From a virus: 64,000 nt of DNA. The position numbers and the translations under genes were made by a program. Below the pieces are notes generated by a model, which ran no database searches, was not told where the DNA came from, and saw only the letters and a program-made list of their open reading frames with translations. Shown here one piece after another: positions 18,898-48,185 of this stretch (the stretch's first letter is position 1; the number at the start of each line of letters is the position of its first letter). Location of the stretch: IMG/VR virus record IMGVR_UViG_3300029237_000366; one strand, written 5' to 3'.

Positions 18898-19165
18898 AAA
18901 TCAGTTTCCTGACGGCGGCGGCAAACTCTTCCTCGTCGATTGCCTGAATATCATCGTAACGCAGGCGTTCAATCAGTTCGTGAACCGCTTTTGTAATGGC
19001 GGTCTCGACAATGATTTCCAAACGGTCAATGCGCTCATTGGCGCTTCCCACCATTCCCTGCATGATATTGTGGTATGCAGCAAGCTCTCGTTTGGATTCC
19101 CTGTTTTTCTCCATCAGTTCGTGAAGCATGATTTCCTGCTGCTGGACTTTCTCTTCCATTGTCAT
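18863..19165 (-). CDS. Hypothetical coiled-coil protein
   Basis: 100-aa ORF in the operon. Confidence 0.3.
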   Translation of the reverse strand: MTMEEKVQQQEIMLHELMEKNRESKRELAAYHNIMQGMVGSANERIDRLEIIVETAITKAVHELIERLRYDDIQAIDEEEFAAAVRKLIFDADPGVQLPF

Positions 19166-19956
19166 AGCCGTCGCTCCACATACTCTCTGTCTTGTGTAAA
19201 GACAGGCGGTTCACGGTCAACGACCCAACGGCTTCTGGAAACCTCCACAGTCGCACCCCCGTTTAATACAGAGACGGCCTCTGTTATCCTTATTTTGATG
19301 CAACAGGAGCCACGCTTGCAATCTGTGGGGAAATCATTCCAGTTGATATTGCGTTCTTTCCAAAGCATATCTTGAATTTTGTTGCAGTTCTTTCCGTGCA
19401 GCTCTCGCTGACTGAAATTCGCCTGTCCAACAGCTTCTATGCTGTTCCGTGTGGCATCCTGCTGACGCCAAATCAGACAGTTGCAGACCTCGTCCAGAGG
19501 AACGGTGAAAGCTCTGGCATCGAACATGGCAGTTTGGAACTTGCGGCGATAAACGGAAAGGTCGAGGCCGCCGTCTTCTTTTTCTGTCTGCTCGGCAAAC
19601 GCCTTATTGAACGCCAGCGTCGCCATTGATGCGGCAATGCTGCACATCTTCTGGACATTATAGCCGAACCATGCATCTGTACGAATAGAGGCGTAATCGG
19701 TCAAAACCAATGTGATTTCATCAGACTGCGTGTATCCGAAGACACAGCCCTGAATGTTAGCACACAGGAAGCGCATGGTATCCTGCATGGCAGACATAAG
19801 AATGCGGTCGAAAGGCTTTCTCATTCCCTTTGTAAAGGTGTGAAAAGCCTTGCCGTCAATACGGATGATGACAGGAACACGACGGGTCAGGTAATTGCGT
19901 GAAACACACTCGTACCGTTTCATCCTGTCGCCCAGCGAATCGCGTTGATTTCCCAT
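19162..19956 (-). CDS. Thg1-like protein (tRNA-His guanylyltransferase family, 3'-5' polymerase)
   Basis: MKRYE..RVPVIIRIDGKAFHTFTKG..KPFD...GYTQSDEITLVL matches the Thg1/TLP N-terminal palm motifs. Confidence 0.7.
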   Translation of the reverse strand: MGNQRDSLGDRMKRYECVSRNYLTRRVPVIIRIDGKAFHTFTKGMRKPFDRILMSAMQDTMRFLCANIQGCVFGYTQSDEITLVLTDYASIRTDAWFGYNVQKMCSIAASMATLAFNKAFAEQTEKEDGGLDLSVYRRKFQTAMFDARAFTVPLDEVCNCLIWRQQDATRNSIEAVGQANFSQRELHGKNCNKIQDMLWKERNINWNDFPTDCKRGSCCIKIRITEAVSVLNGGATVEVSRSRWVVDREPPVFTQDREYVERRL

Positions 19957-20046: not shown

Positions 20047-20376
20047 GTGCTGAAAGGAGATATGATTATGATAGATTTTGATATGAACTTTCAAGACACC
20101 TATAAAACTCCCAGTGAAGACCTGTTGAGCAATGGTGAGCAGTGGTTCTTCCTTGAAACCGAAAAAGACATTTTGAAGAATCGGCGTGAGGAGCTCGGAA
20201 TGACCCAGCAGCAGGTGGCAGACGCTGCACACATTCAAGCTCGCCAATATCAGAGACTGGAAAATGGAGAGCGCAATATAAGCGGCGCCAGCATGAGAAT
20301 TGGATTATCTGTATGTGCCGTCCTGAAGCTCGACCCCTATCGCTTTATGCCAGAGTTCCGTTGGAGCAAAGACTAA
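20047..20376 (+). CDS. XRE-family HTH regulator
   Basis: LGMTQQQVADAAHIQARQYQRLENGERNIS HTH segment; the only plus-strand gene in this block. Confidence 0.5.
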   Translation: MLKGDMIMIDFDMNFQDTYKTPSEDLLSNGEQWFFLETEKDILKNRREELGMTQQQVADAAHIQARQYQRLENGERNISGASMRIGLSVCAVLKLDPYRFMPEFRWSKD

Positions 20377-20887
20377 GTGTCTCCAAGAGTGCTTTTTGAG
20401 GGGCGAACTCCCGATAAAGCTCAATCTCTTTTGTGAGCCGTGCCATAATGGCATCTTCTTTAGCATCGTACCTGCCGAGGTAAATCTTCTTACTATTATA
20501 GGTAATACTGGCGACCCACTTTTCTCTCTGCCTATCAAAGAAAACGCCGGAAACGCCAGATGTGTTGGTGATATAGAGGCTGCGGTTTCTGTCGTTCTCT
20601 GACCGCTGACAACAGCGCAGATTCTCTTTTCGATTATCAGCCTTGTTTTTGTTGATATGGTCAACAAACTGGCCCGGCTTTGCGTGCATAACCAGCCGGT
20701 GAAAGCGGACAAACCGCCGTACACCGCAGTAAAAGTAACTGCTGACGAGGTAACCGTCCTTGTCACAATACCAACTGTCGCGTCCCTTTATGAGCGGCAA
20801 GTCCTCCAAATCGAATAAGAACTCGCTTGTCTTTATCCGAAGAACGCCGTATGTGTCGTGAAGTTCAATCTGCATCGCTTCGTCCAA
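20345..20887 (-). CDS. HNH endonuclease with an AP2 DNA-binding domain (homing-endonuclease-like)
   Basis: HNH motif HRLVMH...VDHINKNKADNRKENLR, then AP2 (SGVSGVFFDRQREKWVASITYNSKKIYLGRY). Confidence 0.7.
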   Translation of the reverse strand: MDEAMQIELHDTYGVLRIKTSEFLFDLEDLPLIKGRDSWYCDKDGYLVSSYFYCGVRRFVRFHRLVMHAKPGQFVDHINKNKADNRKENLRCCQRSENDRNRSLYITNTSGVSGVFFDRQREKWVASITYNSKKIYLGRYDAKEDAIMARLTKEIELYREFAPQKALLETLSLCSNGTLA

Positions 20888-21149
20888 GAGTAGCCGGGGG
20901 TTCGGCTAATCGCCTGTCGAGTATTCCTTTTATGGAATCCGCGCTAATTCGAAATGATGTGCATCCAATGCTGTTAAATTTATCTACGATGGCTTCGTCA
21001 ATAAAGTCATCACATTGCCCCTCATCTGGGACTTCAAACCTGCACACTTTTTTGTGTAAGCATTTATCACATAACAATTATCCACACCTCTTCACTGTAA
21101 CCGCTTTCCGCATCGGTCGTTTTTCTAACTCCCTCAACCGATGTGCATA

Positions 21150-21330
21150 AGCATTGGTCGTAAACCAGAACTCACGAGCGTTGCTTGCAATGCGAGTGAG
21201 TAAAAGGAAAACCGCCCGCGTAGCGGGCTTCTGGTTTACGAGCATAGTGCCGAATTCTTACTTTTGCCTTTGGCGAAAAGCTGCTGAAGGAAATATGTAT
21301 AACAGCAAATCTACAAAGCGGTTGGTCGTT
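21150..21330. ncRNA. Divergent copy (R4) of the structured noncoding element family described under 38385-40480
   Basis: ACTTTT-GCCTTTGGCG-AAAAGC hairpin at about 21262-21283, an upstream GC hairpin (GCCCGCGTAGCGGGC), and a downstream AAATCTACAAAGCGGT block shared with the 35740-35860 copy; the region has no credible ORF. Confidence 0.4.
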
Positions 21331-32441: not shown

Positions 32442-32670
32442 CCTTTAACTCCTCTGTTGTTTTTTCAGATTTCTCTTCCGATTCCTCGGAGATTTCCTTT
32501 TTCGCATCGTTGTAAATTCGCAGGCCGAATGCACCAATGCCCTTAAAGGCAAAGCTCAGACAGAACCATAACAGCACAAGCGCAACGATGACAATGAGCC
32601 AGAACACGATGTTCACTTGCTTACCTCCTGTTCTAAAACTCGTGGTATGTATGTGCGGGTTTCCATGCAC
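32431..32670 (-). CDS. Small membrane protein
   Basis: Hydrophobic helix IVFWLIVIVALVLLWFCLSFAF, translationally coupled to the SPFH gene. Confidence 0.35.
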   Translation of the reverse strand: MHGNPHIHTTSFRTGGKQVNIVFWLIVIVALVLLWFCLSFAFKGIGAFGLRIYNDAKKEISEESEEKSEKTTEELKDEG

Positions 32671-33030: not shown

Positions 33031-34323
33031 TTATCCGAAGCTGACTTCGCTTTTATCGGTTCGGATAGAAATAAACACCGGGAACTGAAGACTCTCAGCA
33101 CCGGTGTTTTTATCACTGGATATTTCCTTGTACTTTACTTCGCAGAGCAAACCCGGCAGGCCATCTTTTCCTTGCCAGAATGTTGCTCGCTGCTCGTCGG
33201 TGAACCCGGAGCCGACCTTGACTTCATTCCCCTTATAGTCGAGTACAAGCGCACCTAAAGTCCCTGCCAATCTTCCGCTGCCTTCTTCGCAGCGGAGGAT
33301 ACGCAAGTCCATCGTGTAAAAGCGTTTGACCTTCAGGATTCCATTGTGTCGTCTGCACTGGTAGGGAACATTGAGGTTTACCATCAGCCCCTCTTTATCC
33401 TCACGAACCATCTGCTCCAGCAGTTCACTGATTTTGTTCTGGTCTTTTCCATGATACAGAACCGGCAGAATACTGACCCGGCCATCCTGCGGAATGAAGC
33501 GGTGAAGTTGGTCTAAGAAAGCACGGCGGTAGCCGTAACTGCCGTCGCTCTGCCCACGGTGGAACTCTTCAACCGTCAGAACATCAAAAATCGTGTAGCA
33601 AATCACCGTTTTATCACCATCGTCTGAGTTGATAATACCGGTGGCTTTGCGGAATGCCTCATTGTCTGAGAGGCTGCCCTTCTCACGAAGCGTCAGCTCA
33701 CCATCGAATACATAGCTATCCTCTTCATCAAAACAGAGAGCATCCAGAATATGGTCAAGTCCTTCATAGGGAACTCCGCTTCTTGCGTACAGTCTGCCTT
33801 TGTAATAGGTCGCCCGGACACCGTTCAGCTTTTGTGTTAGCCAGAACTCCGTGCCCTCCTTCAAAGGATACTTATCAATGGGGTACGCCTGCTGAACTTC
33901 CCATTCTGGAATCAGATTGGGGATAACCTTGTTCACGGTCTTTGCCGTGACGCCCAGCCTGAGTGTCTTGGAAAGAAGCTTGATATAAACATCAGCTTCA
34001 TCCGGCGGGCTGCTCTGAACGAATGCACAAACCTGATACACCGTACCGGCGTCCAATGCTTTTCTTTTAGACAACAGTTCGCAGACAGAAAAGATGTCTG
34101 TCATTGTCAGTGTGATGGCTGAGTCATACCGGGTAGGAGAGCGAAGCGTTTGCTCCGAAATCTTATAGGTGAGCATCGGGTTGAGCGCGTAATATAAAAA
34201 ATTACGGAAGTTCGCATCGTCTTGGAACTCCCGTAATAGCTGGGTCTTTCTTATTGAGCCGACCGCTTCCTGCAAACGGCGTAATTTTACGATAGAATCT
34301 GACAGCGGCGTTGCAGTAATCAA
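33031..34323 (-). CDS. ATP-dependent polynucleotide ligase-family protein (DNA-ligase-like, with Asn in motif I)
   Basis: Motifs KLNGVR (I, N instead of D), FDGELTL (III), EGLMVNL (IV) and ILKVKR (V), then an OB domain (GSGFTDEQR). Confidence 0.6.
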   Translation of the reverse strand: MITATPLSDSIVKLRRLQEAVGSIRKTQLLREFQDDANFRNFLYYALNPMLTYKISEQTLRSPTRYDSAITLTMTDIFSVCELLSKRKALDAGTVYQVCAFVQSSPPDEADVYIKLLSKTLRLGVTAKTVNKVIPNLIPEWEVQQAYPIDKYPLKEGTEFWLTQKLNGVRATYYKGRLYARSGVPYEGLDHILDALCFDEEDSYVFDGELTLREKGSLSDNEAFRKATGIINSDDGDKTVICYTIFDVLTVEEFHRGQSDGSYGYRRAFLDQLHRFIPQDGRVSILPVLYHGKDQNKISELLEQMVREDKEGLMVNLNVPYQCRRHNGILKVKRFYTMDLRILRCEEGSGRLAGTLGALVLDYKGNEVKVGSGFTDEQRATFWQGKDGLPGLLCEVKYKEISSDKNTGAESLQFPVFISIRTDKSEVSFG

Positions 34324-35525
34324 TCTTCATCACCCGCCTTGAAATTATAAATGGGCTTGATAATGGCATCGATGGTTACAGCTGGCTCGATATTACCGAC
34401 AATATCATCCATACCCTTATAGGCCATTGGGCATTCATCCAGCGTGCTGCGCCCAACGGAGGTCGTGTAGATACCCGCCATCTGCTTTTTGAATTCGGAT
34501 ACAGTGAAAGCTTCTTTTGCGGCGCTGCGGCTCATCAGCCGACCGGCACCATGAGGGGCGGAAAAGTTCCAATCCGGATTGCCCTTGCCGGTGCAAAGCA
34601 GGCTGCCGTCACGCATATTGATGGGAATCAACAGACGCTCACCGGCCTGTGCAGACACAGAACCCTTACGCAAAATCATGTTCTCCACATCAATATAGTT
34701 GTGAATCGTTGTAAACTGTTCAGTCACATGGAATCCCATCCCTTTGACAATGGTATCCATCATCGCCTGCCGGTTCAGCTCGGCAAAATGCTGTGCAATT
34801 TTCATGTCATGAAGATACTGCTCAAAGAGCTCGCCCTCCACATAAGCAAGCGGTTTGGGAACGGAGGAATGCTTTGACTTCATGGACTTCAACACTGCTT
34901 GAATCTCTTTCTGGCGGCCATCCGCTTTCAGCTGTTCAATAGCCGCCTCAACCTCTTCATGGCTATAAGAGGTCAGTGCCTTGAAAGCAGCCTCCTGATA
35001 GAAGTTGGCGATTTCTAAACCCAGATGACGGCTGCCGGAGTGGACAACGATATAGATATTCCCATCATCGTCCTTGTTCGCCTCAATAAAATGATTGCCG
35101 CCACCCAATGTACCGATACTGTGATAGGCACGGTCAGTGTTGACCTTTTTTGCGCAGCACAACTGCGACAAATCGATTTCTTTTGCGTAACGATGCGGTG
35201 CGGAACGGATTGCAAAGCCAGACGGAATGCCCTCACGGATAACCTTGTCCAACTTCTGCGGTTCGATATTGGTCTCTTTCAGGCGGATGGTTTCCATACC
35301 GCATCCAATATCAACGCCAACAAGGTTGGGGCAAATCTTATCCTTGATAGTCATGGTGGTTCCGATGGTGCAGCCAGCACCGGCATGAATATCCGGCATC
35401 ATACGAACCTTGCTTCCCTCGACATAGGGTTGGTTCAAGAGATTGATGACCTGAGAAATGGATTCGCTATCGACCACATCGGTAAATACTTTTGCCGAAG
35501 CGTATTTCCCCTGAAGCTCAAGCAT
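34320..35525 (-). CDS. rtcB: RtcB RNA-splicing ligase (3'-phosphate/5'-OH ligase)
   Basis: MPDIHAGAGCTIG, GGGNHFIE, VVHSGSRHLG and APHGAGR signatures. Confidence 0.9.
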   Translation of the reverse strand: MLELQGKYASAKVFTDVVDSESISQVINLLNQPYVEGSKVRMMPDIHAGAGCTIGTTMTIKDKICPNLVGVDIGCGMETIRLKETNIEPQKLDKVIREGIPSGFAIRSAPHRYAKEIDLSQLCCAKKVNTDRAYHSIGTLGGGNHFIEANKDDDGNIYIVVHSGSRHLGLEIANFYQEAAFKALTSYSHEEVEAAIEQLKADGRQKEIQAVLKSMKSKHSSVPKPLAYVEGELFEQYLHDMKIAQHFAELNRQAMMDTIVKGMGFHVTEQFTTIHNYIDVENMILRKGSVSAQAGERLLIPINMRDGSLLCTGKGNPDWNFSAPHGAGRLMSRSAAKEAFTVSEFKKQMAGIYTTSVGRSTLDECPMAYKGMDDIVGNIEPAVTIDAIIKPIYNFKAGDED

Positions 35526-35571
35526 TTTATCGCCCTCCTTTGGCTTGGTATATAGTCCTGTTATAGCACAG

Positions 35572-35597
35572 GTAAAAGGGGCTTGTGCCCCTTTATC
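35572..35597 (-). terminator. Rho-independent terminator-like hairpin
   Basis: The AAAGGGGC-TTGT-GCCCCTTT hairpin is followed by a T-run on the minus strand. Confidence 0.4.
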
Positions 35598-35739
35598 TGT
35601 ACCCGACCGCTTTCCGCAGGGGAGCGCGTTTGTACTGTGGCGCGACCCTGTGCATCAAGTGACATTTTTAACGAGAGATTTTGGCTGTATTAAAATGATT
35701 ATCCGCTGGATAATCTTTTTAATACTGGCTAAATCCGAA

Positions 35740-35860
35740 GTTAAAAATGAAGAACGCAAAGTGTTTCTTCTGCTTTGAGCGAGAAGATACCGCACGGAGA
35801 AGGGGGTATGTATGTGCGGAAAATCTACAAAGCGGTCATATCAAAAGCGAAAGATTTTTT
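35740..35860. ncRNA. Divergent copy (R5) of the structured noncoding element family
   Basis: TCTTCT-GCTTTGAGCG-AGAAGA hairpin with the same architecture as the other cores, a CCGCAC...GTGCGG hairpin, and the AAATCTACAAAGCGGT block shared with R4; lies in a 350-nt ORF-poor gap. Confidence 0.35.
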
Positions 35861-35875
35861 CGCTTAAGAACAAAG

Positions 35876-36415
35876 TTAGTGAAGAATCATCGGTCGATTG
35901 GTGTTAATGAGTTGATTCAATGCCTCGTCTTCTCTTGCTCGTTCAGCGGCTTCCTCTCGGCGGATATCCAGAAGAACAACGCCGCAGAACCCCATCAGCT
36001 CACCGATGGAAAAATCCTCTTCCTCCACAGGAGGCTCATCCGGCTCGGAATCTTCTTCATTAAACATGGTGTCGGTATCGAAATCGTCCTCGTCATCAGG
36101 CTCATCTTCCCAAACACCGTTGTTGTCGCCCCACTCCAGGACATCCTCCTTATAACTGTCAAAGTCATTTTCGTCCATACCGTCATAGTCGAAGCTGCCG
36201 TTCATACGGTAGTAACCATATCCGGTTGGGATTTCGGAAAGCGAGTCTCGAATGTCTCTCCATGAGTAATTGGTGTCGCGGATATCTTCCTCGACATACT
36301 CGTCAAGCTGGTCAGAGTCGATAATGTCTTCGCAGATATTGCAGCCCTCGTCGGAGCAGAAATCAAGCAACTCCCACCATTCGGTTACATCGTTAAGGAA
36401 ATCATTTCTTGTCAT
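35876..36415 (-). CDS. Highly acidic protein (candidate DNA mimic or anti-restriction protein)
   Basis: 179 aa with long D/E runs (EDEPDDEDDFDTD, EEDSEPDEPPVEEED). Confidence 0.4.
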   Translation of the reverse strand: MTRNDFLNDVTEWWELLDFCSDEGCNICEDIIDSDQLDEYVEEDIRDTNYSWRDIRDSLSEIPTGYGYYRMNGSFDYDGMDENDFDSYKEDVLEWGDNNGVWEDEPDDEDDFDTDTMFNEEDSEPDEPPVEEEDFSIGELMGFCGVVLLDIRREEAAERAREDEALNQLINTNRPMILH

Positions 36416-36926: not shown

Positions 36927-37002
36927 TGGAGCTGGTGACAGGGCTCGAACCCGCGACCCTCGGAGTACAAAACCGATGCTCTACCAACTGAGCTACACCA
37001 GC
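36927..37002 (-). tRNA. tRNA-Thr(TGT)
   Basis: 76-nt cloverleaf: GCTGGTG acceptor, AGCTCAGTTGGTAGAGC D-arm, anticodon loop TTTGTAC, GGGTTCGAGCCC T-arm, CCA encoded. Confidence 0.85.
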
Positions 37003-37005
37003 AAA

Positions 37006-37081
37006 TGGAGCTGGAACTCGGAATCGAACCGAGAACCTACGCTGTACGAGAGCGTTGCTCTACCAGTTGAGCTATTCCAGC
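37006..37081 (-). tRNA. tRNA-Thr(CGT)
   Basis: 76 nt: GCTGGAA acceptor, anticodon loop CTCGTAC, T-arm TCGGTTCGATTCCGA, CCA encoded. Confidence 0.85.
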
Positions 37082-37270
37082 ATTGGTCGGCTTCCCGCTT
37101 AGATTGTCACACGCTCATGTGCGGCTGGCGCCCCGCAAGCATACCAACCGGCCACTCTTGGGCTAAATCACAAGGGAGACGCATCTCCTCGCGCAGTTTT
37201 CAGCGGGCATTGTTATTCTCTGTGAGGTAAGCCGATAATCTCTCACATCATCTGGGCGCTACCCAGCCTC

Positions 37271-37348
37271 TGGCACGGACGGTTGGGAATCGAACCCACC
37301 ACAAGCGATTTTGGAGACCGCCTCGCCAGCCTTGGAACATTCGCCCGT
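37271..37348 (-). tRNA. tRNA-Trp(CCA)-like; non-canonical D-arm and an extra nucleotide near the T-stem; possibly a pseudogene
   Basis: Acceptor ACGGGCG/CGTCCGT pairs at 7/7 and the anticodon arm GCGGT-CTCCAAA-ATCGC is good, with discriminator G and CCA. The D-stem barely pairs and the T-arm region is one nucleotide too long. Confidence 0.45.
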
Positions 37349-37588: not shown

Positions 37589-37626
37589 ATTTGAGAGGTC
37601 GGCATCCTGTCTGTAATTTGTAGCGT

Positions 37627-38328
37627 CTACCTATTCCGCCACATCTGCATATCTGAAATCGGAATTACCCGATTGTACAGGGCGACAAACTGGTCGTTGA
37701 GCTGTTTGTCCACATGGTAGTGACCGAAGTACCACCGCTTAAAATGAAGGTCTTGACGAATGCGTTCCAAAAAACTGACCATCGGGTCGTTTTCATACCA
37801 ACTTGCCAGCATTGTCTGGATGCTGCGGGGAGCGCAGTGCGTTACAACATAATCAACTGTCCAGTTGTTCTGCTCCAGAGCACAAACTGCACGCTCCATC
37901 TCCTCGTTTGACGGCATCTCCTGCTGCCACCATGAAATATGCTCCGTGCGATACGCCTTGTCCACTGAGCGAGCACCGCCCATACAGAAGATTTTTCTAC
38001 CGTCAATGGTAAGAACCTGACCTCTGTCCAAATGATAAATGTCCGGTGCAATTTGCCTGACTTTACCGCCGAACCTATCCTCTAACGGGAACTGGTATAG
38101 CATATCAAAGTTTTCGTGGTTTCCGTCAATCCAGAGAGTGGTGAAATTTTTGGCTGTGAGCCAGTCTTGCCACCACATCTCCCTGCGTGAGCCATCCCAG
38201 CATAATCCAAAGTCGCCACATATTATCAAGTAATCATCTTTTGTCAGATTTTTCTGCTGCGGGAATTTTGTTGTGTTAAGTTTTTCAATATCGATATTGG
38301 CGTGAGTATCACCTGTTACATATATCAT
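37627..38328 (-). CDS. Calcineurin-like metallophosphoesterase
   Basis: GDTHAN, GDFG, GNHE and GHYH motifs. Confidence 0.7.
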   Translation of the reverse strand: MIYVTGDTHANIDIEKLNTTKFPQQKNLTKDDYLIICGDFGLCWDGSRREMWWQDWLTAKNFTTLWIDGNHENFDMLYQFPLEDRFGGKVRQIAPDIYHLDRGQVLTIDGRKIFCMGGARSVDKAYRTEHISWWQQEMPSNEEMERAVCALEQNNWTVDYVVTHCAPRSIQTMLASWYENDPMVSFLERIRQDLHFKRWYFGHYHVDKQLNDQFVALYNRVIPISDMQMWRNR

Positions 38329-38384
38329 GGAATCCGATTCCTTTCTTCATTTGCAATCTACACGGAGCGTGTACCTGGAGACCG

Positions 38385-38680
38385 GTACCGGATGACGGCC
38401 CGGCTACTTGAGTTGGTGATTTCAAGGGAATTTGTTGGTATGGGGAAGCGCTTGTGGCTCAGTGGTTTATCGACCTTGCTATATCTCGTGCTCCTGCTGC
38501 TCGGCTTCTATCGGGGTGTATCACTTCGGCGATGAGTCCTGAGCCTTCGTTCCGCCTTCGTGGCGGGCGGCCTTTGTTTTCCCAACAAATTGTTACTTTG
38601 GCCTTTGGCGCAAAGCACATTCCTTTCGGGATGTTATTCATTGCAAATGATTTTGGTGTTCCTGTAATCTACATAGGATA
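38385..38680. ncRNA. Structured noncoding repeat element, copy R1
   Basis: Core hairpin CTTTG-GCCTTTGGCG-CAAAG at 38586-38605, second hairpin ACATTCC-TTTC-GGGATGT, flanking conserved blocks (GTGTTTTCC..CCAACAA.TTGTTAC; TTATTCATTGCA..AAATG), and an upstream GC hairpin CCGCC-TTCGT-GGCGG. Confidence 0.45.
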
Positions 38681-38689
38681 AGCGTGCCG

Positions 38690-38950
38690 GATGCGAGGCG
38701 CCTGGAGCGCATTGCAGGTGCGGTTAGTTCCTATTTTAATTCTCTACTGGTGTGGAACCCATTGTGCCGCAATGACCGCTGACTCTATTTTTCATGCCTG
38801 ATGACGAGCCCGACTGGGTCGCAGCCGCGTCGGCAGCCGGTCTTCAGGAAGAGGCGAGGGTGTTCCTTCCCAACAAGTTGTTACTTATGCCTTTGGCGAT
38901 AAGCATTGCTTTCGCAATTATCCATTACAGGAAATGGCGGTTTAACCTCA
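38690..38950. ncRNA. Structured noncoding repeat element, copy R2
   Basis: Core hairpin CTTAT-GCCTTTGGCG-ATAAG at 38874-38893 (compensatory relative to R1), second hairpin ATTGC-TTTC-GCAAT, a terminal GGCGG...CCGCC hairpin; homologous upstream arm. Confidence 0.45.
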
Positions 38951-38964
38951 ATCCGCCAAAGAGA

Positions 38965-40122
38965 TTATCTTAAATCGTCTTTGATAAGCCGCAGGACATC
39001 TGTCTCCATTTTTTCGTTGGTGTGCTTCACGATGGCATCGATAGTCTCCGGCTCTACCATACGATAGTAGCTATGTAAGCCCTGCATGGTTTGAACATCT
39101 TCTCTCGGCCACGAGACGCCCTTGCGTTTATCGGTAATGTAGTTGTAAAGCATGGACTGGAACTGGCGCTTCTTCTTATGGCCGACAGTAATTTCATTGT
39201 CCTTGTTGAGCATGACACCAAGATTCCAGTTACGACCTGCGGAAGAGCCGTATCTCGTTTTGCTTTCGTTGATGGTGAACGGTGCTCCAAATTCATGCAG
39301 CGTATCCACCACGAGTTTTTCTACACGATGCACATCGAAATCAACCTTAGACGAAATGATGAAGTCATCGGCATATCTGGTGTAAATGAACCGCTGCTTG
39401 TCAAAATCACGGAATGCATTGGCAAGCTTATAGTCAACAGGAATCATCATTACATTGGTAATCAGCGGGGAAAGCGGAGTTCCCTGCGGCAGACCTCCAT
39501 TGAGAAAAGCCAAATCCAAGGCCTTCCGCAACTCTGCCTCGCCGTTGGGAAACTTTACGATTTCGCTGAATGGGAACACCATAGAAAACATTTTGATAAC
39601 ATAATCCAGTGTAGTGCTACCAAAGAAATCGTGCAAATCCAGCTTGCCGAACCACTTGCTGTTGTTTTTCTGATGACGCTTGACCGCATCAACCGTACAT
39701 CTGTTTTTTACATAGGCGAATGCAGAAGTGTGATACAACGCATGGAAATCTTCCTCAAAAATAGTCTTGAGATTCCGCAATGCGTTCATCAGCTCCGGTT
39801 TAGGGGCATCAATACGACGCAAACCACCAGACTTTTTGGGGATGTGGAATGTTTCATACAAAGTACTGCGTTCTTGTGCGCGAAGCGCCTCCGTTTGCTC
39901 ATTAAAGCGCACCAGTTTGCGGATAAGAGCATCCGTATCAATGCGGCTTGTAAAATGCTCACTTACCGTTTCATATGCATAGGTTCGTGTGTTGGAAACA
40001 TTTGTGTTTAATATGGTTTGTGCTTGGAAGTTTTGAAAGAGGAACTCCTCCAGTGTCATTTGGTGATAAATCGGGGATTGCATGACCGTGATATATACCA
40101 TAGTTCTATGCCTCCTTTTCAT
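38965..40122 (-). CDS. Reverse transcriptase (retron/group-II-intron-like, free-standing, no endonuclease domain)
   Basis: RT motifs IPKKSGGLRRI (1), AFAYVKNRCTVDA (2), LDLHDFFGS (3), GLPQGTPLSPL (4, QG type), YTRYADDFIISS (5, YADD), and a thumb-like C-terminus (ITVGHKKKRQFQSMLY; GLHSYYRMV). Confidence 0.8.
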   Translation of the reverse strand: MKRRHRTMVYITVMQSPIYHQMTLEEFLFQNFQAQTILNTNVSNTRTYAYETVSEHFTSRIDTDALIRKLVRFNEQTEALRAQERSTLYETFHIPKKSGGLRRIDAPKPELMNALRNLKTIFEEDFHALYHTSAFAYVKNRCTVDAVKRHQKNNSKWFGKLDLHDFFGSTTLDYVIKMFSMVFPFSEIVKFPNGEAELRKALDLAFLNGGLPQGTPLSPLITNVMMIPVDYKLANAFRDFDKQRFIYTRYADDFIISSKVDFDVHRVEKLVVDTLHEFGAPFTINESKTRYGSSAGRNWNLGVMLNKDNEITVGHKKKRQFQSMLYNYITDKRKGVSWPREDVQTMQGLHSYYRMVEPETIDAIVKHTNEKMETDVLRLIKDDLR

Positions 40123-40199
40123 AGTCGTAACTGTAACCTACATAAGGTAATGCCGCGTTTGAATCAAAAGAAGGTACCTGCAGCGAGCTTTGGTGAGCT

Positions 40200-40480
40200 G
40201 CGTTGGTGGGTATTCTTTTGATAAAAGTGGTGAGTACTTGTCGAGATTGGGTTGATTTCGTGATGGTTTTCACTTGACAGTCTCGGTTTGTTGTGTTATT
40301 CCTTCTACCGGTTCCCTGGCGGATGTCTATCGGCTTCGAGTCTCCTGAGGAGTCTCCAGTCGTCGCTCTGGGCAGGCGGTGTTTTCCACCCCGACAATTT
40401 GTTACTTCAGCCTTTGGCGTGAAGCCCCCGAAAAGGGTAATTCGTTACAGTTAAATGGCGCATTTTAAGGCTGCGCCACA
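40200..40480. ncRNA. Structured noncoding repeat element, copy R3
   Basis: Core hairpin CTTCA-GCCTTTGGCG-TGAAG at 40405-40424 (a third compensatory variant), second hairpin CCC-GAAAA-GGG, a terminal GGCGC...GCGCC hairpin; the upstream arm is homologous to R1. Confidence 0.45.
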
Positions 40481-41274
40481 CCTAATAGCTCGAACAGTTC
40501 TGCATCTGTGCAGGTTTCGTTTTTCAATGCGTATGGTTTGATGTGGGCTACGCCGTTTTCATCAACCTCTACCACTGTTTCCGGTTTCAACCGGCACAAC
40601 GGCCTAAGCCCCGCACAGTCACGGGGATATTTCCTCTCACAATACCCAGACCTACTAAGAGTCAAAGCATAGCCTCTGAATTCATCCTGCTTGCCTGCCA
40701 ACCAGAAGTTCATGTAAGACTCCCAACTGAAATTACCAAACCGGCCTTTTTTATCAGCACAGTCTTCTGTTGCTTTGGGACGAATACCTTTCTTGGAAAA
40801 CAGCTTCAGCTTCAACTGGTCATCAAAGATATCGGTGATAGTAGGAAGTCGAATGAGGGAACTGAGCGTCTCACCGTCAACAACATACTGCTGCATCTGC
40901 AAGCTATCGAGTTCATAATCTTCAAAGAAGTATAGAAACCCATAATGGTTGCGATAGCTTTGTGCTCGGTTGCTGAAAACATTATTCGGAGGGGCATCTG
41001 CTTCATGAGTTTTGCGAAACCAATCGTCTCTGTCGCTGTTTAGGTATGTATGAATATTGGACAGACGATAGTCGGGATTGCCAAGATTGCGCCTGCCGTC
41101 TCCAGTTCTTTCCGGTGCATCAAAGCAAAGATAATCCACGGCACACTCGGTGATAAAATCGCAGTTTGGACTACCTTTCAGCCAAACAACGGGGTGCGGT
41201 TCATCATTGTTGACTCCGTAAGAACCAATGATGACCTGTGTGCCGACCTTAAGGCGTTCGACGGTAGTATCCAT
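40465..41274 (-). CDS. Hypothetical protein, DUF1566/Lcl-C-terminal-like; paralog of the 45474-46148 gene
   Basis: RLPTITD..., ...SRSGYCERK...CAGLRPLCRL C-terminal pattern. Confidence 0.35.
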   Translation of the reverse strand: MDTTVERLKVGTQVIIGSYGVNNDEPHPVVWLKGSPNCDFITECAVDYLCFDAPERTGDGRRNLGNPDYRLSNIHTYLNSDRDDWFRKTHEADAPPNNVFSNRAQSYRNHYGFLYFFEDYELDSLQMQQYVVDGETLSSLIRLPTITDIFDDQLKLKLFSKKGIRPKATEDCADKKGRFGNFSWESYMNFWLAGKQDEFRGYALTLSRSGYCERKYPRDCAGLRPLCRLKPETVVEVDENGVAHIKPYALKNETCTDAELFELLGVAQP

Positions 41275-41308
41275 AATGCACCGCCCTCCTTTCGTTTCTC
41301 ATCGCTGA

Positions 41309-41986
41309 TTAAAAAGCGTCCAACATAAAGTTGAACGCATCCAAGATAATCAGTTTTTTCAGTCCCTTGCCACGAATGAAGTTGACAAAGTTGGCGACGC
41401 CGAGTGCGCAGATAGCCCTGACGGTTGGCGCAACGCCCAGTGTAACACCGCAAGCGGAGACAGGTGTTTCCTCAGACGCCTCTTCATGACTGAAGTTCAT
41501 GGAGTTCAGCAAGTCTTTCTTCATCTTGTAGTCAGACCAGTCGGCAGCATAATGCTGTGCAGATTCCAATAGAGTGCGGAAGTCCAGCATTGCTTTGACA
41601 TAGGGATTGTCGAAGTGCTTTTCAACAATCTGGCGACGAAGTTCGATATTGTCTACGCAAAGGAAGACATACCCGGAAAGCTGCTGCCCACTCCACCCCT
41701 TGCCATAAAGCTTGAGGTCGTCCTTAATTTCGGGATTGATTTCAAACAGGATATCTGCCAGAGCCTCCACTTTGGGGCGGCCAATATCCTGCTGGCGGAA
41801 AATCTGGTTTGCCAGATTATGCGGATTCACAACATCCATATCCCACAGAGCGAGATTGGTGATGCCAAGACGGACGAGGTTCTCTGCCAGCGTTGCACCA
41901 ACAGAACCACATCCAACAATGTTAATGCGAGCCTCAACCTTTTCAGGCTGGAAATACTCGTAGCTTTTGGACAAATCCATTGCCAT
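41309..41986 (-). CDS. E1-like adenylyltransferase (ThiF/MoeB/HesA family)
   Basis: The Rossmann nucleotide-binding loop IVGCGSVGATLAENLVRLGITNLALWDMDVVNPHNLANQ is typical of the E1/ThiF family. Confidence 0.75.
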   Translation of the reverse strand: MAMDLSKSYEYFQPEKVEARINIVGCGSVGATLAENLVRLGITNLALWDMDVVNPHNLANQIFRQQDIGRPKVEALADILFEINPEIKDDLKLYGKGWSGQQLSGYVFLCVDNIELRRQIVEKHFDNPYVKAMLDFRTLLESAQHYAADWSDYKMKKDLLNSMNFSHEEASEETPVSACGVTLGVAPTVRAICALGVANFVNFIRGKGLKKLIILDAFNFMLDAF

Positions 41987-41988
41987 TG

Positions 41989-42957
41989 TTACTCACCTCC
42001 AAGATACTGGTCGCTGTAGCCGCCATAGGGATATACGGAACCATCATCGTCTTCATCCCACATGGACTGCTGACAGCTATTCTTCCCCTGCCAACCTGCA
42101 CCGATTCTTGTGCGCGGCTTCTCGGCCTTTTCGGATTTTTGCTCTGATTTCTTATCAGACTTCTTGCCGTCTTTGTCATCCTTCTCATCTTTTTTGCTGC
42201 CCGGAAGAGGATTATAAGGGGCTCCGGAATAAGGTGGACGATTGCCGCTATATCCGCTATATCCACCATAGTTTCCGTAGGTATAGCTTTTCTGCTTTAC
42301 CATATCCTTGGCGGTCTTGAGGAACTCAGCCAGCCCCTCATGTTCACCCTCAAGTTTGACGGTGATGTCCTTATCTTCAAACAGGACATTCTTCTTGAGG
42401 TCATAGATTTTATTTGTACTGACAAATGACTTGTTCCAAATCATGAAGATGTAGAAGTCGTCGTCCCCCAGCATATTGAGGATTTCCTCCTGATGATTGA
42501 GGTCTACGGAAGATGGGCTGGTCGCCATATTGACATGGGAATGTCCCTGCATATGAATGTTGTTGAAACGCTCATCGTCTGCATTCTGCATCAACCACTC
42601 AGCGTACTTCTCAGTATCCATCTCAACCGTGGTTCCGGAGACCTCCTGCGGATAAACCACGATGTCTTCGATGATGTACTCATCTACGGCTTCGTCAGCT
42701 GCACGATGTGCAACGCCATGCCAAGCGACCTCCTTATCAAACTCTTTGACGAGGAGTGCCATCTTCGCCCATGCTCCGGCAGTAAAGACGACAGTTGCTT
42801 TTCTGTCGCCACAGGTGAACACCTTTGTGAAAGACAGTTTCCCATCTGCAAGCTTTGTAAGCTGCAAAGCCTTTTCAAAATCTGCACGGCACTCAGCCAT
42901 GTACTGTTCGGTCATCTTAATGGGTTTACTCATTTTGCGCCTCCTCCGCTTACTCAT
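41989..42957 (-). CDS. JAB/MPN (JAMM) metalloprotease-domain protein with a disordered Lys/Tyr-rich C-terminal tail
   Basis: HSHVNMATSPSSVD fits the JAMM motif HxHx7Sx2D. The C-terminus is low-complexity (YSGYSGNRPPYSG...KKDEKDDKDGKKSDKK); 4-bp overlap with the E1-like gene. Confidence 0.7.
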   Translation of the reverse strand: MSKRRRRKMSKPIKMTEQYMAECRADFEKALQLTKLADGKLSFTKVFTCGDRKATVVFTAGAWAKMALLVKEFDKEVAWHGVAHRAADEAVDEYIIEDIVVYPQEVSGTTVEMDTEKYAEWLMQNADDERFNNIHMQGHSHVNMATSPSSVDLNHQEEILNMLGDDDFYIFMIWNKSFVSTNKIYDLKKNVLFEDKDITVKLEGEHEGLAEFLKTAKDMVKQKSYTYGNYGGYSGYSGNRPPYSGAPYNPLPGSKKDEKDDKDGKKSDKKSEQKSEKAEKPRTRIGAGWQGKNSCQQSMWDEDDDGSVYPYGGYSDQYLGGE

Positions 42958-44413
42958 TTGCCTGCGTTTCCTGCTGCTCCAACCAGCTGATGGCTTCGTT
43001 GGGTTTTACGATACGGCCATCGGGCAGTTCAATGCAGCGATTGTTGCTACCGTTGCCCCACATAGACCGCATAAACGAAGTCATGACAGCAGAGTCTCCC
43101 CAGTTAAGGCTCTTGCAGGAAGCAACGCACTGCTCCAAAGCGCCAATATAGTCGTGGTTCCTAAGCAGCCGATTGATAGTGGTGGTATAATTACCCATGC
43201 AGTTGTAATCATTGATATGGGGATTGGGGAGGTAGTCACCATACTCCGCGCCAAAATCCCGATGCCCATTGGGAGCAACGCTACCATTAAGGTCAAAACG
43301 GTAGGAAGCACAGACACGAATTCTCAGGCGCGGCTCTTCACTGACAAAGATTTCAGTCATCAGCTTCTTCATTTTCTCAGCAGCTGCGCCTGTATGACCG
43401 GAGCCTCCGTCGGGGCGGTACACGAAACTCGTAGCGTGGTTAATGATTTGTTCTGCCATATCCCGGTCAAAATATTCCAGACAATCCTTGACCGTGAAGT
43501 ACATATCGGTATTGGTCACACGCTCCAGAACCAGCTTGGTATTACACAGGAAGTACTCCATGATTTCAGAGTCCTCACCGCCATCGGCAACTTTCTGCTC
43601 AAGTCCCAGCAAGCGAATACACTGTTCATTACGCTTTGTGAACTGCTCACCGATATTGTCATTTAGACGGGTGATTTCTCTATCGATATTTTGAATTACC
43701 TGCCTGACACGGTCACACTCAACTTGCTCATAGCGAGTTTCAAAACCCTTCAGCAGCTGACGGATTCTTGCTGTGCGGAAATCGTACCGTTCTGCAAGCT
43801 TGGCAAGACAGCGTTCATAGTCTTCTGAGCTCTTTTCGCGGAGGGATTTGACCAATGCAAGCTCATCTTCGGTGATACCCTCCTGCTGATTCAGATACCA
43901 CGGCAGGAATGCGAGGATAGATACCTGCAAGTAGTGCATTTTGCGAATGTCAAGATTGTCCGCAAAGATGATAACACTCTTAAGCTCAGGATTGATGTAG
44001 CAATCCACGGCAAAGGATTTGCGGTAAAACTCGGCGAACTTTTCAAGCCGGTGATACCCTGCAAACACGGAAACGAACTTGTCAACAATAATTTTCATGT
44101 TGGCAAGATTGCTATCCGAGTCTGCCCGCAAACTATGAATAATAACCTGACCGGTTGCGCTCATATCATAGTTGTTGCAGATAGCCGAAACGGCTCTGTC
44201 CGCCGGAACACTACGAATCGTGTCTGCCGTATAATCGGAAGAACCGAACACCAAATTGACGGACTCTCCCTCTTTGATTCGAGGTGCAACTAAGGCACGA
44301 AGCGTCGCAAGGAAAGAGCAGTCGTTTCCGAAAGCACCGCCGGTGATATTGGTGAAGTAGCTATTGGCAGCTTCCGTAGTAAACGGCGTTGACGAAATGC
44401 TTGTTTTGAACAT
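42950..44413 (-). CDS. Hypothetical large protein (about 488 aa) upstream of the JAB gene
   Basis: Start moved to the internal Met (MFKTSISS, AGAGGTG RBS) to avoid overlapping tRNA-Leu; no recognisable domain. Confidence 0.4.
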   Translation of the reverse strand: MFKTSISSTPFTTEAANSYFTNITGGAFGNDCSFLATLRALVAPRIKEGESVNLVFGSSDYTADTIRSVPADRAVSAICNNYDMSATGQVIIHSLRADSDSNLANMKIIVDKFVSVFAGYHRLEKFAEFYRKSFAVDCYINPELKSVIIFADNLDIRKMHYLQVSILAFLPWYLNQQEGITEDELALVKSLREKSSEDYERCLAKLAERYDFRTARIRQLLKGFETRYEQVECDRVRQVIQNIDREITRLNDNIGEQFTKRNEQCIRLLGLEQKVADGGEDSEIMEYFLCNTKLVLERVTNTDMYFTVKDCLEYFDRDMAEQIINHATSFVYRPDGGSGHTGAAAEKMKKLMTEIFVSEEPRLRIRVCASYRFDLNGSVAPNGHRDFGAEYGDYLPNPHINDYNCMGNYTTTINRLLRNHDYIGALEQCVASCKSLNWGDSAVMTSFMRSMWGNGSNNRCIELPDGRIVKPNEAISWLEQQETQANE

Positions 44414-44440
44414 AGGAACACCTCTATTCATTTTGTTATA

Positions 44441-44525
44441 TGGTGGGGAATATCGGAGTCGAACCGATATGGTATGCACCAGCGGATTTTAAGTCCGCAG
44501 CGTCTGCCTGTTCCGCCAATTCCCC
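44441..44525 (-). tRNA. tRNA-Leu(TAA)
   Basis: 85 nt: GGGGAAT acceptor, anticodon loop CTTAAAA, long variable arm, ATCGG-TTCGACT-CCGAT T-arm, CCA encoded. Confidence 0.85.
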
Positions 44526-44575
44526 ATAGAAAGAGCCGCCCGAATGGGCGGCTCAATTGGTCTATTGCTTGTGAA

Positions 44576-44803
44576 TCAGGCGTTATCGGCCTTGACCACA
44601 TTCAGCAGGAAGCACTTCTCGGTGATACCGAACTGAGCGAAGGTCTTGTCGAGGTCGCCGGGGTTCAGGGAAGACCCGTCGAGGTGCATGACGCCACGGG
44701 TATAGTCAACACCGTTCGCCTCCAGACAGGCACGCAGGGTGGTGGACTCGTCGATGATAACGGACTCGCGCTTGACATTGTTGCCAACAGTAACCTTAAT
44801 CAT
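44576..44803 (-). CDS. Small hypothetical protein with beta-grasp-like alternation of strands
   Basis: 75 aa (MIKVTVGNNVKRESVIID...GITEKCFLLNV); no C-terminal GG. Confidence 0.3.
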   Translation of the reverse strand: MIKVTVGNNVKRESVIIDESTTLRACLEANGVDYTRGVMHLDGSSLNPGDLDKTFAQFGITEKCFLLNVVKADNA

Positions 44804-44882
44804 AATGTTTCTCCTTTAATTCAAAATTTGTTTTGTTGTGAACGGAAGGGGGCGGCATAAGCCGCCCCTTTGCGACCAGTGA

Positions 44883-45281
44883 TTACTGAGCGACCGTGAT
44901 GTTGCTCAGCACATTTGCCTTCTCAGCCGCAATCTCATCGAGAACGGCAGGCAGCTTCTCCTCAAGCTTGTTGAGGCTGATGATGGCGGCGCCCAGACGG
45001 TCAGCGACCCAGTCCTTAACATCGCCGGTCACACCGTCGAGGAACAGGGTGATGCACGCCAGCTTCTCATCGTCGCGGGTCTCAGCGCCGAAAGAAGCGC
45101 CGAAAGCGTTGATGTTACCGGCACCATTGGTGGTACCCACAGCGAAGATAGGCTCCTTGCCGTCCTCGCCACCCTTGAGAACCAGCTCCTTGGGACGATA
45201 CTTCTCAATGGTCTTGATGTCCTCCAGCTTTATTGCGGAAGTTACGACAGCTGCGTCGCCTGCGATAGTGATTTTTGCCAT
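44883..45281 (-). CDS. Hypothetical protein
   Basis: 132-aa ORF with a clean context. Confidence 0.4.
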   Translation of the reverse strand: MAKITIAGDAAVVTSAIKLEDIKTIEKYRPKELVLKGGEDGKEPIFAVGTTNGAGNINAFGASFGAETRDDEKLACITLFLDGVTGDVKDWVADRLGAAIISLNKLEEKLPAVLDEIAAEKANVLSNITVAQ

Positions 45282-45473
45282 GATGTATGTACTCCTTCAA
45301 TACTGATGTACTCCTATTTGTTCACCTTTCGGTTATCCGCCCACACCACGAGGAGGTTGGAGCCGTTGTGGGTATGAAACGCGCCCGGTCTCCTTCGCGG
45401 AGCGCCGGGCGCTTGTAAAAAGCTATTTGATTTTACTGGTTCGGGCAAAAGCTGATGGCTACGCCATGCAGCT

Positions 45474-46148
45474 TTAAGTGCAGAAGCCGAAAGCGACGCC
45501 ATGACTGCTGTCGGCGTAGTAATTGTTGGCGGTGCCGGTGCTGTAGACATCACAGAAACGATCGCTGTTGCCAGAACGAGGAGAACGCAACATGGTGTAA
45601 TCAGGATTACCGTTGCGGAGCTTAAACCATGCGACATCTTCCTGACGATACCACTCGTACCAATGCCCCTCACCGGGAGCGGAGTAAATATTGCGTCCAT
45701 ACAATTCCTTCTCAGACTTTATCCAGAAAGAGTCCAGCGTCTCGATAATACGATTCTCGCCAGTGTACACATCAGCTGTCTGCTTAATGACTGGTGTGAC
45801 AACATCCAAAATCTCGTCGGGAATCAGACGATGAATGTCGCCGTCCGCATCGTTGAGCCGATGGCGAATCTGCGTTGCTTCCCACGACCCTTCATTGGTG
45901 TCGCGCCTGTTCCAGGGGTAAGTGTTAGGCAGACAATCCACCATCTCCCAAGAGATAGGAGCCAAAGAACCGTCGCTCGTCTTGTCGTGATTGAAGCCGA
46001 TGATGCGAAACTGAACCTGCGCACCGTTCTTCAGCACAACATTGCGGTAATCTCCGAGCTGCAAGAAATCAGCCGCATATTTTCCAAGCCCCTTTAAGGA
46101 ACGCCATGGCATATTATCCAAACAGTTTGGCATTTCACAGACCTCCAA
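45474..46148 (-). CDS. Hypothetical protein, DUF1566/Lcl-C-terminal-like
   Basis: C-terminal MLRSPRSGNSDRFCDVYS...GVAFGFCT pattern; paralogous to 40465-41274 and to the fragment at 62614-62832. Confidence 0.4.
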   Translation of the reverse strand: MEVCEMPNCLDNMPWRSLKGLGKYAADFLQLGDYRNVVLKNGAQVQFRIIGFNHDKTSDGSLAPISWEMVDCLPNTYPWNRRDTNEGSWEATQIRHRLNDADGDIHRLIPDEILDVVTPVIKQTADVYTGENRIIETLDSFWIKSEKELYGRNIYSAPGEGHWYEWYRQEDVAWFKLRNGNPDYTMLRSPRSGNSDRFCDVYSTGTANNYYADSSHGVAFGFCT

Positions 46149-46158
46149 TCAAAAAATG

Positions 46159-46249
46159 TGGCGGGGAGTGTAGGATTTGAACCCACGGACGGCTCATCAC
46201 CGTCAACGGTTTTCAAGACCGCCGCCATAAGCCACTCGGCCAACTCCCC
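46159..46249 (-). tRNA. tRNA-Ser(TGA)
   Basis: 91 nt: GGGGAGT acceptor, anticodon loop CTTGAAA, long variable arm, GTGGG-TTCAAAT-CCTAC T-arm, discriminator G, CCA. Confidence 0.85.
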
Positions 46250-46265
46250 ATAAAAGAAGGGCGGG

Positions 46266-46949: not shown

Positions 46950-46959
46950 GAAATAGAAT

Positions 46960-47035
46960 TGGTGCCCCCGATGGGGCTTGAACCCATGACACCCGCCTTA
47001 AAAGGGCGGTGCTCTACCGACTGAGCTACGGAAGC
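46960..47035 (-). tRNA. tRNA-Lys(TTT)
   Basis: 76 nt: GCTTCCG acceptor, anticodon loop CTTTTAA, ATGGG-TTCAAGC-CCCAT T-arm, CCA. Confidence 0.85.
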
Positions 47036-48129: not shown

Positions 48130-48185
48130 CTGTCTTGTTGGGAATGTCGATATGTACTCTTATCCGACGCATTTTAACCCTCCAT

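Follow-up and report, generated by a model that had tools for sequence, protein, structure and literature searches.

Detached intergenic copies of a retron-like RNA family as candidate templates for a phage reverse transcriptase

What are the structured elements that lie between genes, kilobases away from the reverse transcriptase gene, in the genome of a gut phage? The question arises in a viral sequence of 64,000 nucleotides (nt), IMG/VR record IMGVR_UViG_3300029237_000366, the whole of which we call the window. A first-pass annotation of this stretch had described a short hairpin in at least five copies, two of which, R4 and R5, are diverged and lie far from the reverse transcriptase (RT) gene; R1, R2 and R3 lie at ~38590, 38878 and 40399, around the open reading frame (ORF) 38965-40122 that holds this gene. 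The annotation had read the set as a dispersed cis-acting family not tied exclusively to the RT. We find that R4 and R5 almost certainly belong to the RT-associated RNA family of R1-R3. Because they carry each structural feature of a retron RNA and depart from it only in lying apart from the RT gene, we propose that they probably serve as detached template RNAs (msr-msd-like) for the phage RT.

The sequence elements quoted for R4 and R5 are all present: the R4 core ACTTTTGCCTTTGGCGAAAAGC at 21260-21281, 2 nt off its estimated position, the R4-associated GC hairpin GCCCGCGTAGCGGGC at 21214-21228, the R5 core TCTTCTGCTTTGAGCGAGAAGA at 35766-35787, the CCGCAC...GTGCGG hairpin of R5, and the 16-mer AAATCTACAAAGCGGT, which occurs exactly twice, at 21307 and 35821. 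A second block common to R4 and R5, ACCGCTTTCCGCA, had been missed and lies at 21100 and 35606. It is the inverted partner of AAAGCGGT within the 16-mer and closes both units, and this inverted pairing was the first sign of a larger closed element around each short hairpin.

Do R4 and R5 belong with R1-R3? A covariance model of the 5' module had five matches in the 64 kb, all on the minus strand (R3, 71.5 bits; R2, 67.5; R4, 64.9; R1, 61.2; R5, 43.6), the next match scoring 12 bits. The annotation had proposed searching the window with a model of R1-R3. A second model, for which nothing but R1-R3-type copies from other phages was used, also detected R4 (40.9 bits; E = 4e-6) and, at a lower score, R5 (24.7 bits; E = 0.007), and beyond the family copies the window held no match to it above 9.4 bits. 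The match of R4 and R5 to the family is thus far above chance, and the view that they are diverged members of one structured family in five copies of the same orientation was borne out. All five are intergenic, and the genes of the region also lie on the minus strand. When the exact core pattern, with two free positions per side, was scanned over viral contigs, it returned 90 loci on related phage contigs of ~60-130 kb. The free positions were Watson-Crick paired in 130 of 139 matches, with six different dinucleotides, and five of the non-Watson-Crick matches were C.A on the plus strand, that is, G.U on the minus strand. Across 39 distinct diverged sequences the core hairpin was 99% paired, with 6 of 9 pairs changed on both sides, counts that lean towards structure because this alignment was fitted to the model; none of 500 shuffles came up to the real alignment in covariation score or in the percentage of paired cells. 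A search of the R1-R5 regions against Rfam at E <= 10 gave no meaningful family match, no tRNA or tmRNA was found at the R1-R5 sites, and a phage collection held no close annotated phage, its matches being limited to tRNA genes.

How is this family related to the RT? RT homologues at 41-99% identity were gathered from genome bins and viral contigs, and 65 of their loci, down to ~46% identity, were searched. Every model match (91/91) lay on the RT strand, flanking the RT gene; the matches cluster ~210-400 nt before the RT start and directly past the RT stop, where a second or third unit often comes after them. On the contigs where this is checkable, R4-type copies share the contig with an RT. 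In the window, R4 lies 17.6 kb and R5 3.1 kb from the RT gene, both downstream and on the same strand. R4 and R5 are thus physically detached from the RT and yet look functionally tied to it, their family standing beside homologues of this RT in the 65 loci examined, contrary to the earlier statement. The dispersed family is real, as had been claimed, and its tie is to the RT, not to promoters.

The larger element around each core was defined by its closing stem. Stems were first sought as exact reverse complements with no other condition, which recovered them in nearly all loci, and the set was then widened to stems with G.U pairs and to a further 27 loci of greater distance. Of the base pairs in the resulting 44 distinct arm pairs, 443 are Watson-Crick, 13 are G.U and none is A.C, and 7 of 7 inner pairs are changed on both sides across loci; R4-type arm pairs include ACCGCTTT/AAAGCGGT, CCGGTTGCCCT/AGGGCAACCGG and GGCCAGTCGCCTT/AAGGCGACTGGCC, and further AGACGCCTT/AAGGCGTCT and GACCCGCCGT/ACGGCGGGTC. 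In all complete units from the unbiased reverse-complement search the base after the 5' arm is a G, and at 36 of 36 distinct junctions a G, which was never a search requirement, precedes the 3' arm.

Which strand carries the functional RNA? Folding energy left this undecided, as both R4 strands fold well (z = -4.7 and -6.7), and the G.U counts decide it: the only exceptions in the closing stems are G.U pairs, and hairpin 1, the core hairpin, is closed by a conserved G.U pair, each of which identifies the minus strand as the functional RNA. Since the minus strand is transcribed, the GC hairpin follows the core and lies inside the long central hairpin described below; the annotation was right about the hairpin and had its order reversed. 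No sigma-70-like promoter was seen upstream of any unit on the minus strand, and the units are probably read from this strand within long gene transcripts.

The same counts bear on whether the copies are repeats at the DNA level with no RNA function, such as miniature inverted-repeat mobile elements, recombination or packaging sites, or retro-copied leftovers. The units have inverted terminal repeats and are dispersed, and the arms of R4 and R5 are identical within the window genome. An HNH/AP2-type homing endonuclease gene (20345-20887, minus strand) lies ~200 nt beyond R4, and a homologue directly follows an R4-type unit in another phage locus (L088), an association that may reflect chance or local mobility. 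Thirteen G.U pairs and no A.C pair, however, mean that pairing is selected on one strand only. The conserved G.U pair closing hairpin 1, compensatory changes in three separate helices and a strict strand use relative to genes speak against DNA repeats as well, and neither target-site duplications nor a transposase were seen. We therefore regard an origin as DNA-level repeats as very improbable.

The complete R4 unit, supported by its closing stem, its minimum free energy (MFE) fold and the model matches, spans 21099-21323 on the minus strand (225 nt) and folds at -78.6 kcal/mol (z = -4.7). Its ends are joined by a 9-bp stem of AACCGCTTT (21315-21323) with AAAGCGGTT (21099-21107), and directly after the 5' arm stands the candidate priming (branching) G, at 21314, opposed by a G at 21108. 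Hairpin 2 follows (GCUG...CAGC, 21283-21306), with UACAUA in its loop, and then hairpin 1 (GCUUUU-C-GCC-AAA-GGC-AAAAGU, 21260-21281), which is the previously annotated core with its NN/NN covariation. The MFE fold next predicts a long, msd-like central hairpin (21159-21240) with a 12-bp basal stem of CGUAAACCAGAA with UUCUGGUUUACG; it contains GCCCGC-UAC-GCGGGC and a CAUUG...CAACG sub-hairpin. R4-type units carry GCAUUGC-AAG-CAAUGC (in R4 at 21182-21197), which is similar to the short interior hairpin of R1-R3 described below. A 3' hairpin of conserved position (CAUCGG...CCGAUG, 21111-21143) is followed by CGG and the 3' arm. The sole terminator-like site seen for the units, in R4, lies inside the central hairpin.

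R5 repeats this anatomy in different sequence. The unit spans 35604-35838 on the minus strand (235 nt), supported on the same three grounds, and folds at -81.1 kcal/mol (z = -9.4). A 10-bp stem of TGACCGCTTT (35829-35838) with AAAGCGGTCG (35604-35613) closes it, with a G after the 5' arm at 35828 and an opposing G at 35614. Hairpin 2 (CCGCAC...GUGCGG, 35790-35819) precedes hairpin 1 (UCUUCU-C-GC-UCAAA-GC-AGAAGA, 35766-35787), whose closing pair is U-A where other copies have G.U. The msd-like central hairpin predicted by the MFE fold (35663-35749) has a base stem of the CAUUUUUARC/GYUAAAAAUG type that is also found in the homologous locus L091 (CAUUUUUAGC/GCUAAAAAUG), and in locus L092 the central hairpin likewise rests on an A/U-rich base stem, though one that differs in sequence. 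The 3' hairpin (CAGGG...CCCUG, 35617-35650) is again followed by CGG and the 3' arm. Eleven nt past that arm and 46 nt before the RtcB start codon we observed a hairpin, AAAGGGGC-ACAA-GCCCCUUUU (35566-35599, minus strand), which resembles a weak intrinsic terminator and could set the 3' end of the R5 transcript.

This layout, namely 5' arm, G, (U/A/C)AGAUU, hairpin 2 with its UACAUA loop, hairpin 1, central hairpin, 3' hairpin, (U)GCRG and 3' arm, was found in the MFE folds of 12 of 12 diverged R4/R5-type members, which come from phages with RTs 58-79% identical to the window RT. Hairpin 2 is predicted in all 12, with a variable stem sequence and a conserved UACAUA loop. At the position of the R4 central hairpin other phages also have a hairpin, and the central hairpin sequences are quite different; the stem of the 3' hairpin likewise varies, CAGGG pairing with CCCUG in R5 and other members differing again. 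As for possible antisense targets of the unit interiors, only chance-level matches of 11-13 nt were found elsewhere in the window, and a 15-mer common to R5 and 32644-32658 was dismissed as a target, as it lies inside a coding region.

Are the units leaders of the genes that follow them? The first-pass annotation had placed each copy just upstream of a minus-strand gene start and had suggested promoter-proximal antitermination, RNase processing or regulator binding. A broader form of this proposal holds that they are cis-acting 5'-untranslated elements for processive antitermination (like HK022 put or EAR), for RNase processing or mRNA stabilisation, or for translational control. The placement holds for four of the five units, whose 3' ends lie 18-78 nt upstream of a start codon, and fails for R2, which is followed by R1; that is, R2 precedes another unit and not a gene. 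In many diverged loci a ribosome-binding site comes directly after the 3' arm, the units sit within operons of one common direction and lack a promoter-like site for themselves, and their 5' module consists of two adjacent hairpins, as do the put RNAs in transcribed leaders upstream of genes. However, the genes after R4/R5-type units vary among phages and are unrelated (small ORFs, RtcB, an isochorismatase-like gene, an HNH endonuclease), and R4 and R5 are therefore probably not gene-specific leaders. A closed architecture of 215-350 nt with two opposing G residues is foreign to known antiterminator RNAs, and put and EAR, unlike the R-units, have neither a long-range closing stem nor a link to an RT. 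The family, in contrast, tracks one RT clade. Thus, the RT linkage, the msr-msd architecture, the variable downstream genes and the lack of promoters all speak against the proposed roles, and we consider a leader function quite unlikely.

If the units are tied to the RT, what kind of enzyme is it? The gene (38965-40101, minus strand) encodes 378 amino acids (aa) from an ATG preceded by AAAGGAGG, and its product matches Pfam RVT_1. In PADLOC the best 25 matches are all retron RT models, led by RT_II-A (1.6e-47, 160 bits) over nearly the full model length, and the top NCBIfam model is retron_St85_RT (4e-52). The Drt2 model reaches 40 bits, and retron models far outscore both Drt2 and Drt3. The closest relatives of solved structure are the RTs of retrons Ec83, Ec78 and Ec67, and the active-site motif YTRYADD is present in 96 of 96 homologues. 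By sequence, the enzyme thus falls in the retron RT clade. Its protein sequence recurs on thousands of metagenomic contigs. The window holds no second RT or RT paralogue, and a diversity-generating retroelement was rejected, as 37600-41400 contains no template/variable repeat.

Retron transcripts have hybridising terminal inverted repeats, two opposing G residues, one to three msr hairpins and a long, stable msd stem-loop, and synthesis by the retron RT starts at the 2'-OH of a conserved branching G and proceeds along the msd in the direction of its 5' end (Mestre et al. 2020, PMC7736814). R4 and R5 have the a1/a2 inverted repeats (9 and 10 bp), the pair of opposing G residues where the a1/a2 stem ends on its inner side, the 5' one being the predicted branch point, and two msr-like hairpins (2 and 1); a long msd-like stem-loop is predicted for the R4/R5 type in 12 of 12 MFE folds. 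Retron RNAs are also contiguous with and upstream of the RT gene, within a single transcription unit, a position taken by R3 and not by R4 or R5. The system as a whole therefore resembles retrons such as Ec86/Eco1, Ec78/Eco7, Ec83 and St85/Sen2 in several respects: (i) an RT that scores best against retron models and carries a YxRYADD motif; (ii) RNA units with paired terminal repeats, an opposing G pair, two 5' hairpins and, in R4 and R5, a long internal hairpin; and (iii) one unit, R3, directly upstream of the RT in the same orientation. It differs from them in being found on contigs catalogued as viral, in having five RNA units per RT, which also lie downstream and 3 and 18 kb away, and in lacking a recognised effector, the RT neighbours being a ThiF/E1-like, a JAB-like and a 509-aa protein. 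The units are also 215-350 nt long, the VTG triplet of the RT is not conserved, and multicopy single-stranded DNA is here a prediction.

The units nearest the RT form a second sub-type. All on the minus strand, R1 (38347-38650, 304 nt; arms TCATTTGCAAT with ATTGCAAATGA) is the second unit downstream of the RT, R2 (38659-38933, 275 nt; arms TTCCTGTAAT with ATTACAGGAA) lies directly past the RT stop codon, and R3 (40128-40453, 326 nt; arms TAACTGTAAC with GTTACAGTTA) lies directly upstream of the RT. The two sub-types have in common the closing stem, both G residues and the two 5' hairpins. The interior of R1-R3 exceeds that of R4 and R5 in length and is rich in A and C. It is variable apart from a conserved short hairpin in its middle, CCAUUG-(5 nt)-CAAUGG (e.g., ~38760-38780), and a CYGRAGRC motif lies ~30 nt past hairpin 1. 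An extra helix for R1-R3, pairing UAGGG after hairpin 1 with CCUAU before the 3' arm, was rejected on inspection, as it fits some sequences and not others. Two short motifs change place between the sub-types: GUAGAUU follows the 5' arm in R4 and R5 (21307-21314, 35821-35828) and in R1-R3 precedes and enters the 3' arm (38358-38365, 38669-38676, 40138-40145), and UACAG comes after the 3' arm in R4 and R5 but is part of it in R2 and R3. These placements hint that the sub-types may be related by rearranged ends. We also observed a conserved hairpin of the form GGCGN-loop-NCGCC, with YYUUAA in the loop, on the minus strand at 38936-38957 and 40457-40477. It stands 3 nt upstream of the 5' arms of R2 and R3 (~3-8 nt in related phages), with the stop codon of the upstream gene in or beside its loop, and may be a processing site or boundary element.

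The existence of two sub-types raises the possibility that R4 and R5 are decayed or repurposed paralogues and that only the RT-adjacent copies act as templates, or that the RNAs bind the RT or its ThiF-like, JAB-like and 509-aa partners without being copied, as scaffold, regulator or decoy. The layout of R4 and R5 is indeed somewhat different from that of R1-R3, R5 is the weakest match to the R1-R3-only model, conservation sits in the 5' module and not in the putative template, and the synteny of the RT with three other genes is conserved. Yet the closing stem, both G residues and the long hairpin of the R4/R5 type are kept in the 12 members from diverged phages, which argues for purifying selection on the full template-like architecture, and of the two sub-types R4/R5 is the closer to canonical retron RNAs. 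Binding without copying, or decay of the distant copies, is in our judgement an unlikely explanation, though one to keep in mind.

What, then, would the mechanism of a detached template be? We propose that R4 and R5 are free-standing RNA genes transcribed within operons. The two ends of each RNA would pair, with a G just inside this stem on its 5' side and a second G opposite. The two 5' hairpins, conserved throughout the family, are the likely handle for RT recognition, and the long variable hairpin and the short 3' hairpin the likely template. Acting in trans, the sole RT would bind to the conserved 5' module, start synthesis from the 2'-OH of the G next to the 5' arm (G21314 in R4, G35828 in R5) and copy the 3' hairpin and the central hairpin into a short single-stranded DNA. 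One enzyme could in this way give rise to several different small DNAs in the phage, which may act in anti-defence, in the exclusion of rival phages or in something else.

Several observations weigh against this proposal. The RT scores 177 bits against retron_St85_RT, below the NCBIfam curated cut-off of 235 bits for that model. Aligned to Ec83, its VTG triplet reads NLG, with the G alone kept, and its NAxxH motif in region X is only approximate (..VDAVKRH; the H is kept and the N-A shifted). R1-R3 have no obvious long msd hairpin. The 100% pairing of the inner closing stem arises partly by construction, because the arms were located by complementarity, a bias that does not touch the covariation, the untargeted opposing G or the consistent position. 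Nearly all units end 10-80 nt before a ribosome-binding site, so that an effect in cis on the downstream gene is possible. Finally, known retrons have one non-coding RNA (ncRNA) beside the RT, and we know of no precedent for a retron with five copies, two of them at 3.1 and 17.6 kb.

Is there a precedent outside retrons? According to a preprint of September 2026, short complementary DNA (cDNA) hairpins are made by the UG27 RTs of gut phages and prophages from arrays of ncRNA units that are ~150 nt long and diverse in sequence, and some of these units lie in neighbouring intergenic regions (10.64898/2026.09.22.753630). By analogy, the UG27 phage RT with its ncRNA arrays is the closest functional parallel. 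The two systems (UG27: Mestre et al. 2022, PMC9226505; Minerva preprint 10.64898/2026.09.22.753630) have in common a phage-borne RT and several ncRNA units that are conserved in structure and diverse in sequence. UG27 systems occur in human-gut phages of Bacillota and Bacteroidota and include conserved accessory proteins of unknown function; these accessory ORFs are required, which offers a model for a possible role of the partners described below. UG27, however, is a class 2 UG/Abi RT with YSDD at its active site, whereas the present RT has YADD in 96 of 96 homologues and is scored as a retron enzyme. In UG27 the units measure 135-167 nt, follow one another in tandem and feature a pseudoknot as well as the motifs AUCN7UANAG and UUYA. 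The present units are 215-350 nt long and lack these motifs, AUCN7UANAG occurring in 5 of 67 of them, at inconsistent positions. A ThiF domain is found among the present accessory genes, and the UG27 partners have no detectable domain (PMC9226505). The active site, model scores, unit length, motif and partner genes thus rule out that the present system is UG27, a comparison made by description and not by protein alignment. A second parallel is gp206 of the Staphylococcus jumbo phage MarsHill, likewise a retron-like phage RT with no features of a diversity-generating retroelement and no effector, which adjoins a long non-coding region suspected of holding an ncRNA (10.1101/2020.12.14.422802). 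Unlike the present RT, gp206 has 501 aa and an extra N-terminal domain, and neither an RNA structure nor multiple copies have been described for it.

The RT has companions upstream of it on the same strand (41309-44479, minus): a ThiF/E1-like gene (41309-41986), a JAB-like gene (41989-42957) and the gene of the 509-aa protein (42950-44479), for which Pfam, PHROGs, NCBIfam and PADLOC gave no matching family. The order 509-aa protein, JAB-like, ThiF/E1-like, RNA unit, RT is kept in homologous loci (L091-L115) down to 46% RT identity, and by analogy the three proteins may be working partners of the RT. The neighbourhood often also has an acidic protein and a metallophosphoesterase. In the window the acidic protein (35876-36415, minus strand; 179 aa) is very acidic and has no family match; an R5-type unit lies ~40-290 nt after its gene in five loci (the window, L091, L092, L093 and L100), and an alternative position of the gene near the RT module is before the ThiF-like gene. 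Past these R5-type units come RtcB, an isochorismatase-like gene or small ORFs, depending on the locus. It may be a DNA mimic or a component of the system.

The window also holds features apart from the family. All Rfam matches above the gathering threshold lie outside R1-R5; among them are RAGATH-4 (52704-52838, minus strand, 111.9 bits) and RAGATH-16 (53015-53086, minus strand, 95.6 bits), candidate structured RNAs of unknown function that stand 176 nt apart on the gene strand. A perfect 58-nt tandem repeat, GCGGGGTCTTGCCCTGCACCCTTAACCGCAAGGGGTGTACCCTGTGAGCGGCGGGGCG (53174-53289), adjoins the RAGATH-16 match, and a third, 62% identical copy with the common block CCGCAAGGGGTGTACCCTGT lies 1.2 kb away (54488-54545). 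The phage further encodes an RNA-repair and tRNA kit (19162-19956, 33031-35525, 36927-37348), comprising a Thg1-like tRNA-His guanylyltransferase, RtcB, an ATP-dependent ligase and a metallophosphoesterase, and the window has 13 tRNA genes (44441-49885 and 62883-63129). This kit is consistent with a phage that counters tRNA-cleaving host defences.

What would detached templates mean for the phage and for retrons? Retrons are understood as bacterial defence modules of one RNA, one enzyme and one toxin. The present system departs from this norm in that a large clade of gut phages has a retron-type enzyme as a fixed component, with no known effector and with several template-like RNAs, two of them far from the RT gene. 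Our searches of the open literature turned up no account of a retron-type RT in a phage that has several or detached ncRNA units; the present case would be such a system, its multiple templates partly dispersed, in parallel to the UG27 arrays. We put forward tentatively, as a possibility short of our preferred reading of R4 and R5, that this clade, widespread among phages of human and animal guts, combines its retron-clade RT with variable, partly dispersed msr-msd-like templates into a repertoire of small single-stranded DNAs, a phage-side retron acting in trans, convergent with the UG27 arrays and perhaps aided by the ThiF/E1-like, JAB-like and 509-aa partners. Such a repertoire would serve counter-defence, competitor exclusion or genome replication rather than abortive infection. 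In these RNAs, the conserved 5' handle and the freely variable hairpin make up the modular layout that is wanted for multi-donor retron genome editing. Should the RNAs indeed be copied, it would follow that natural retron RTs are able to work on more than one template in trans, that phages put small cDNAs to uses of their own, and that RT systems with multiple templates have at least two origins in gut phages, one in UG27 and one in the present clade.

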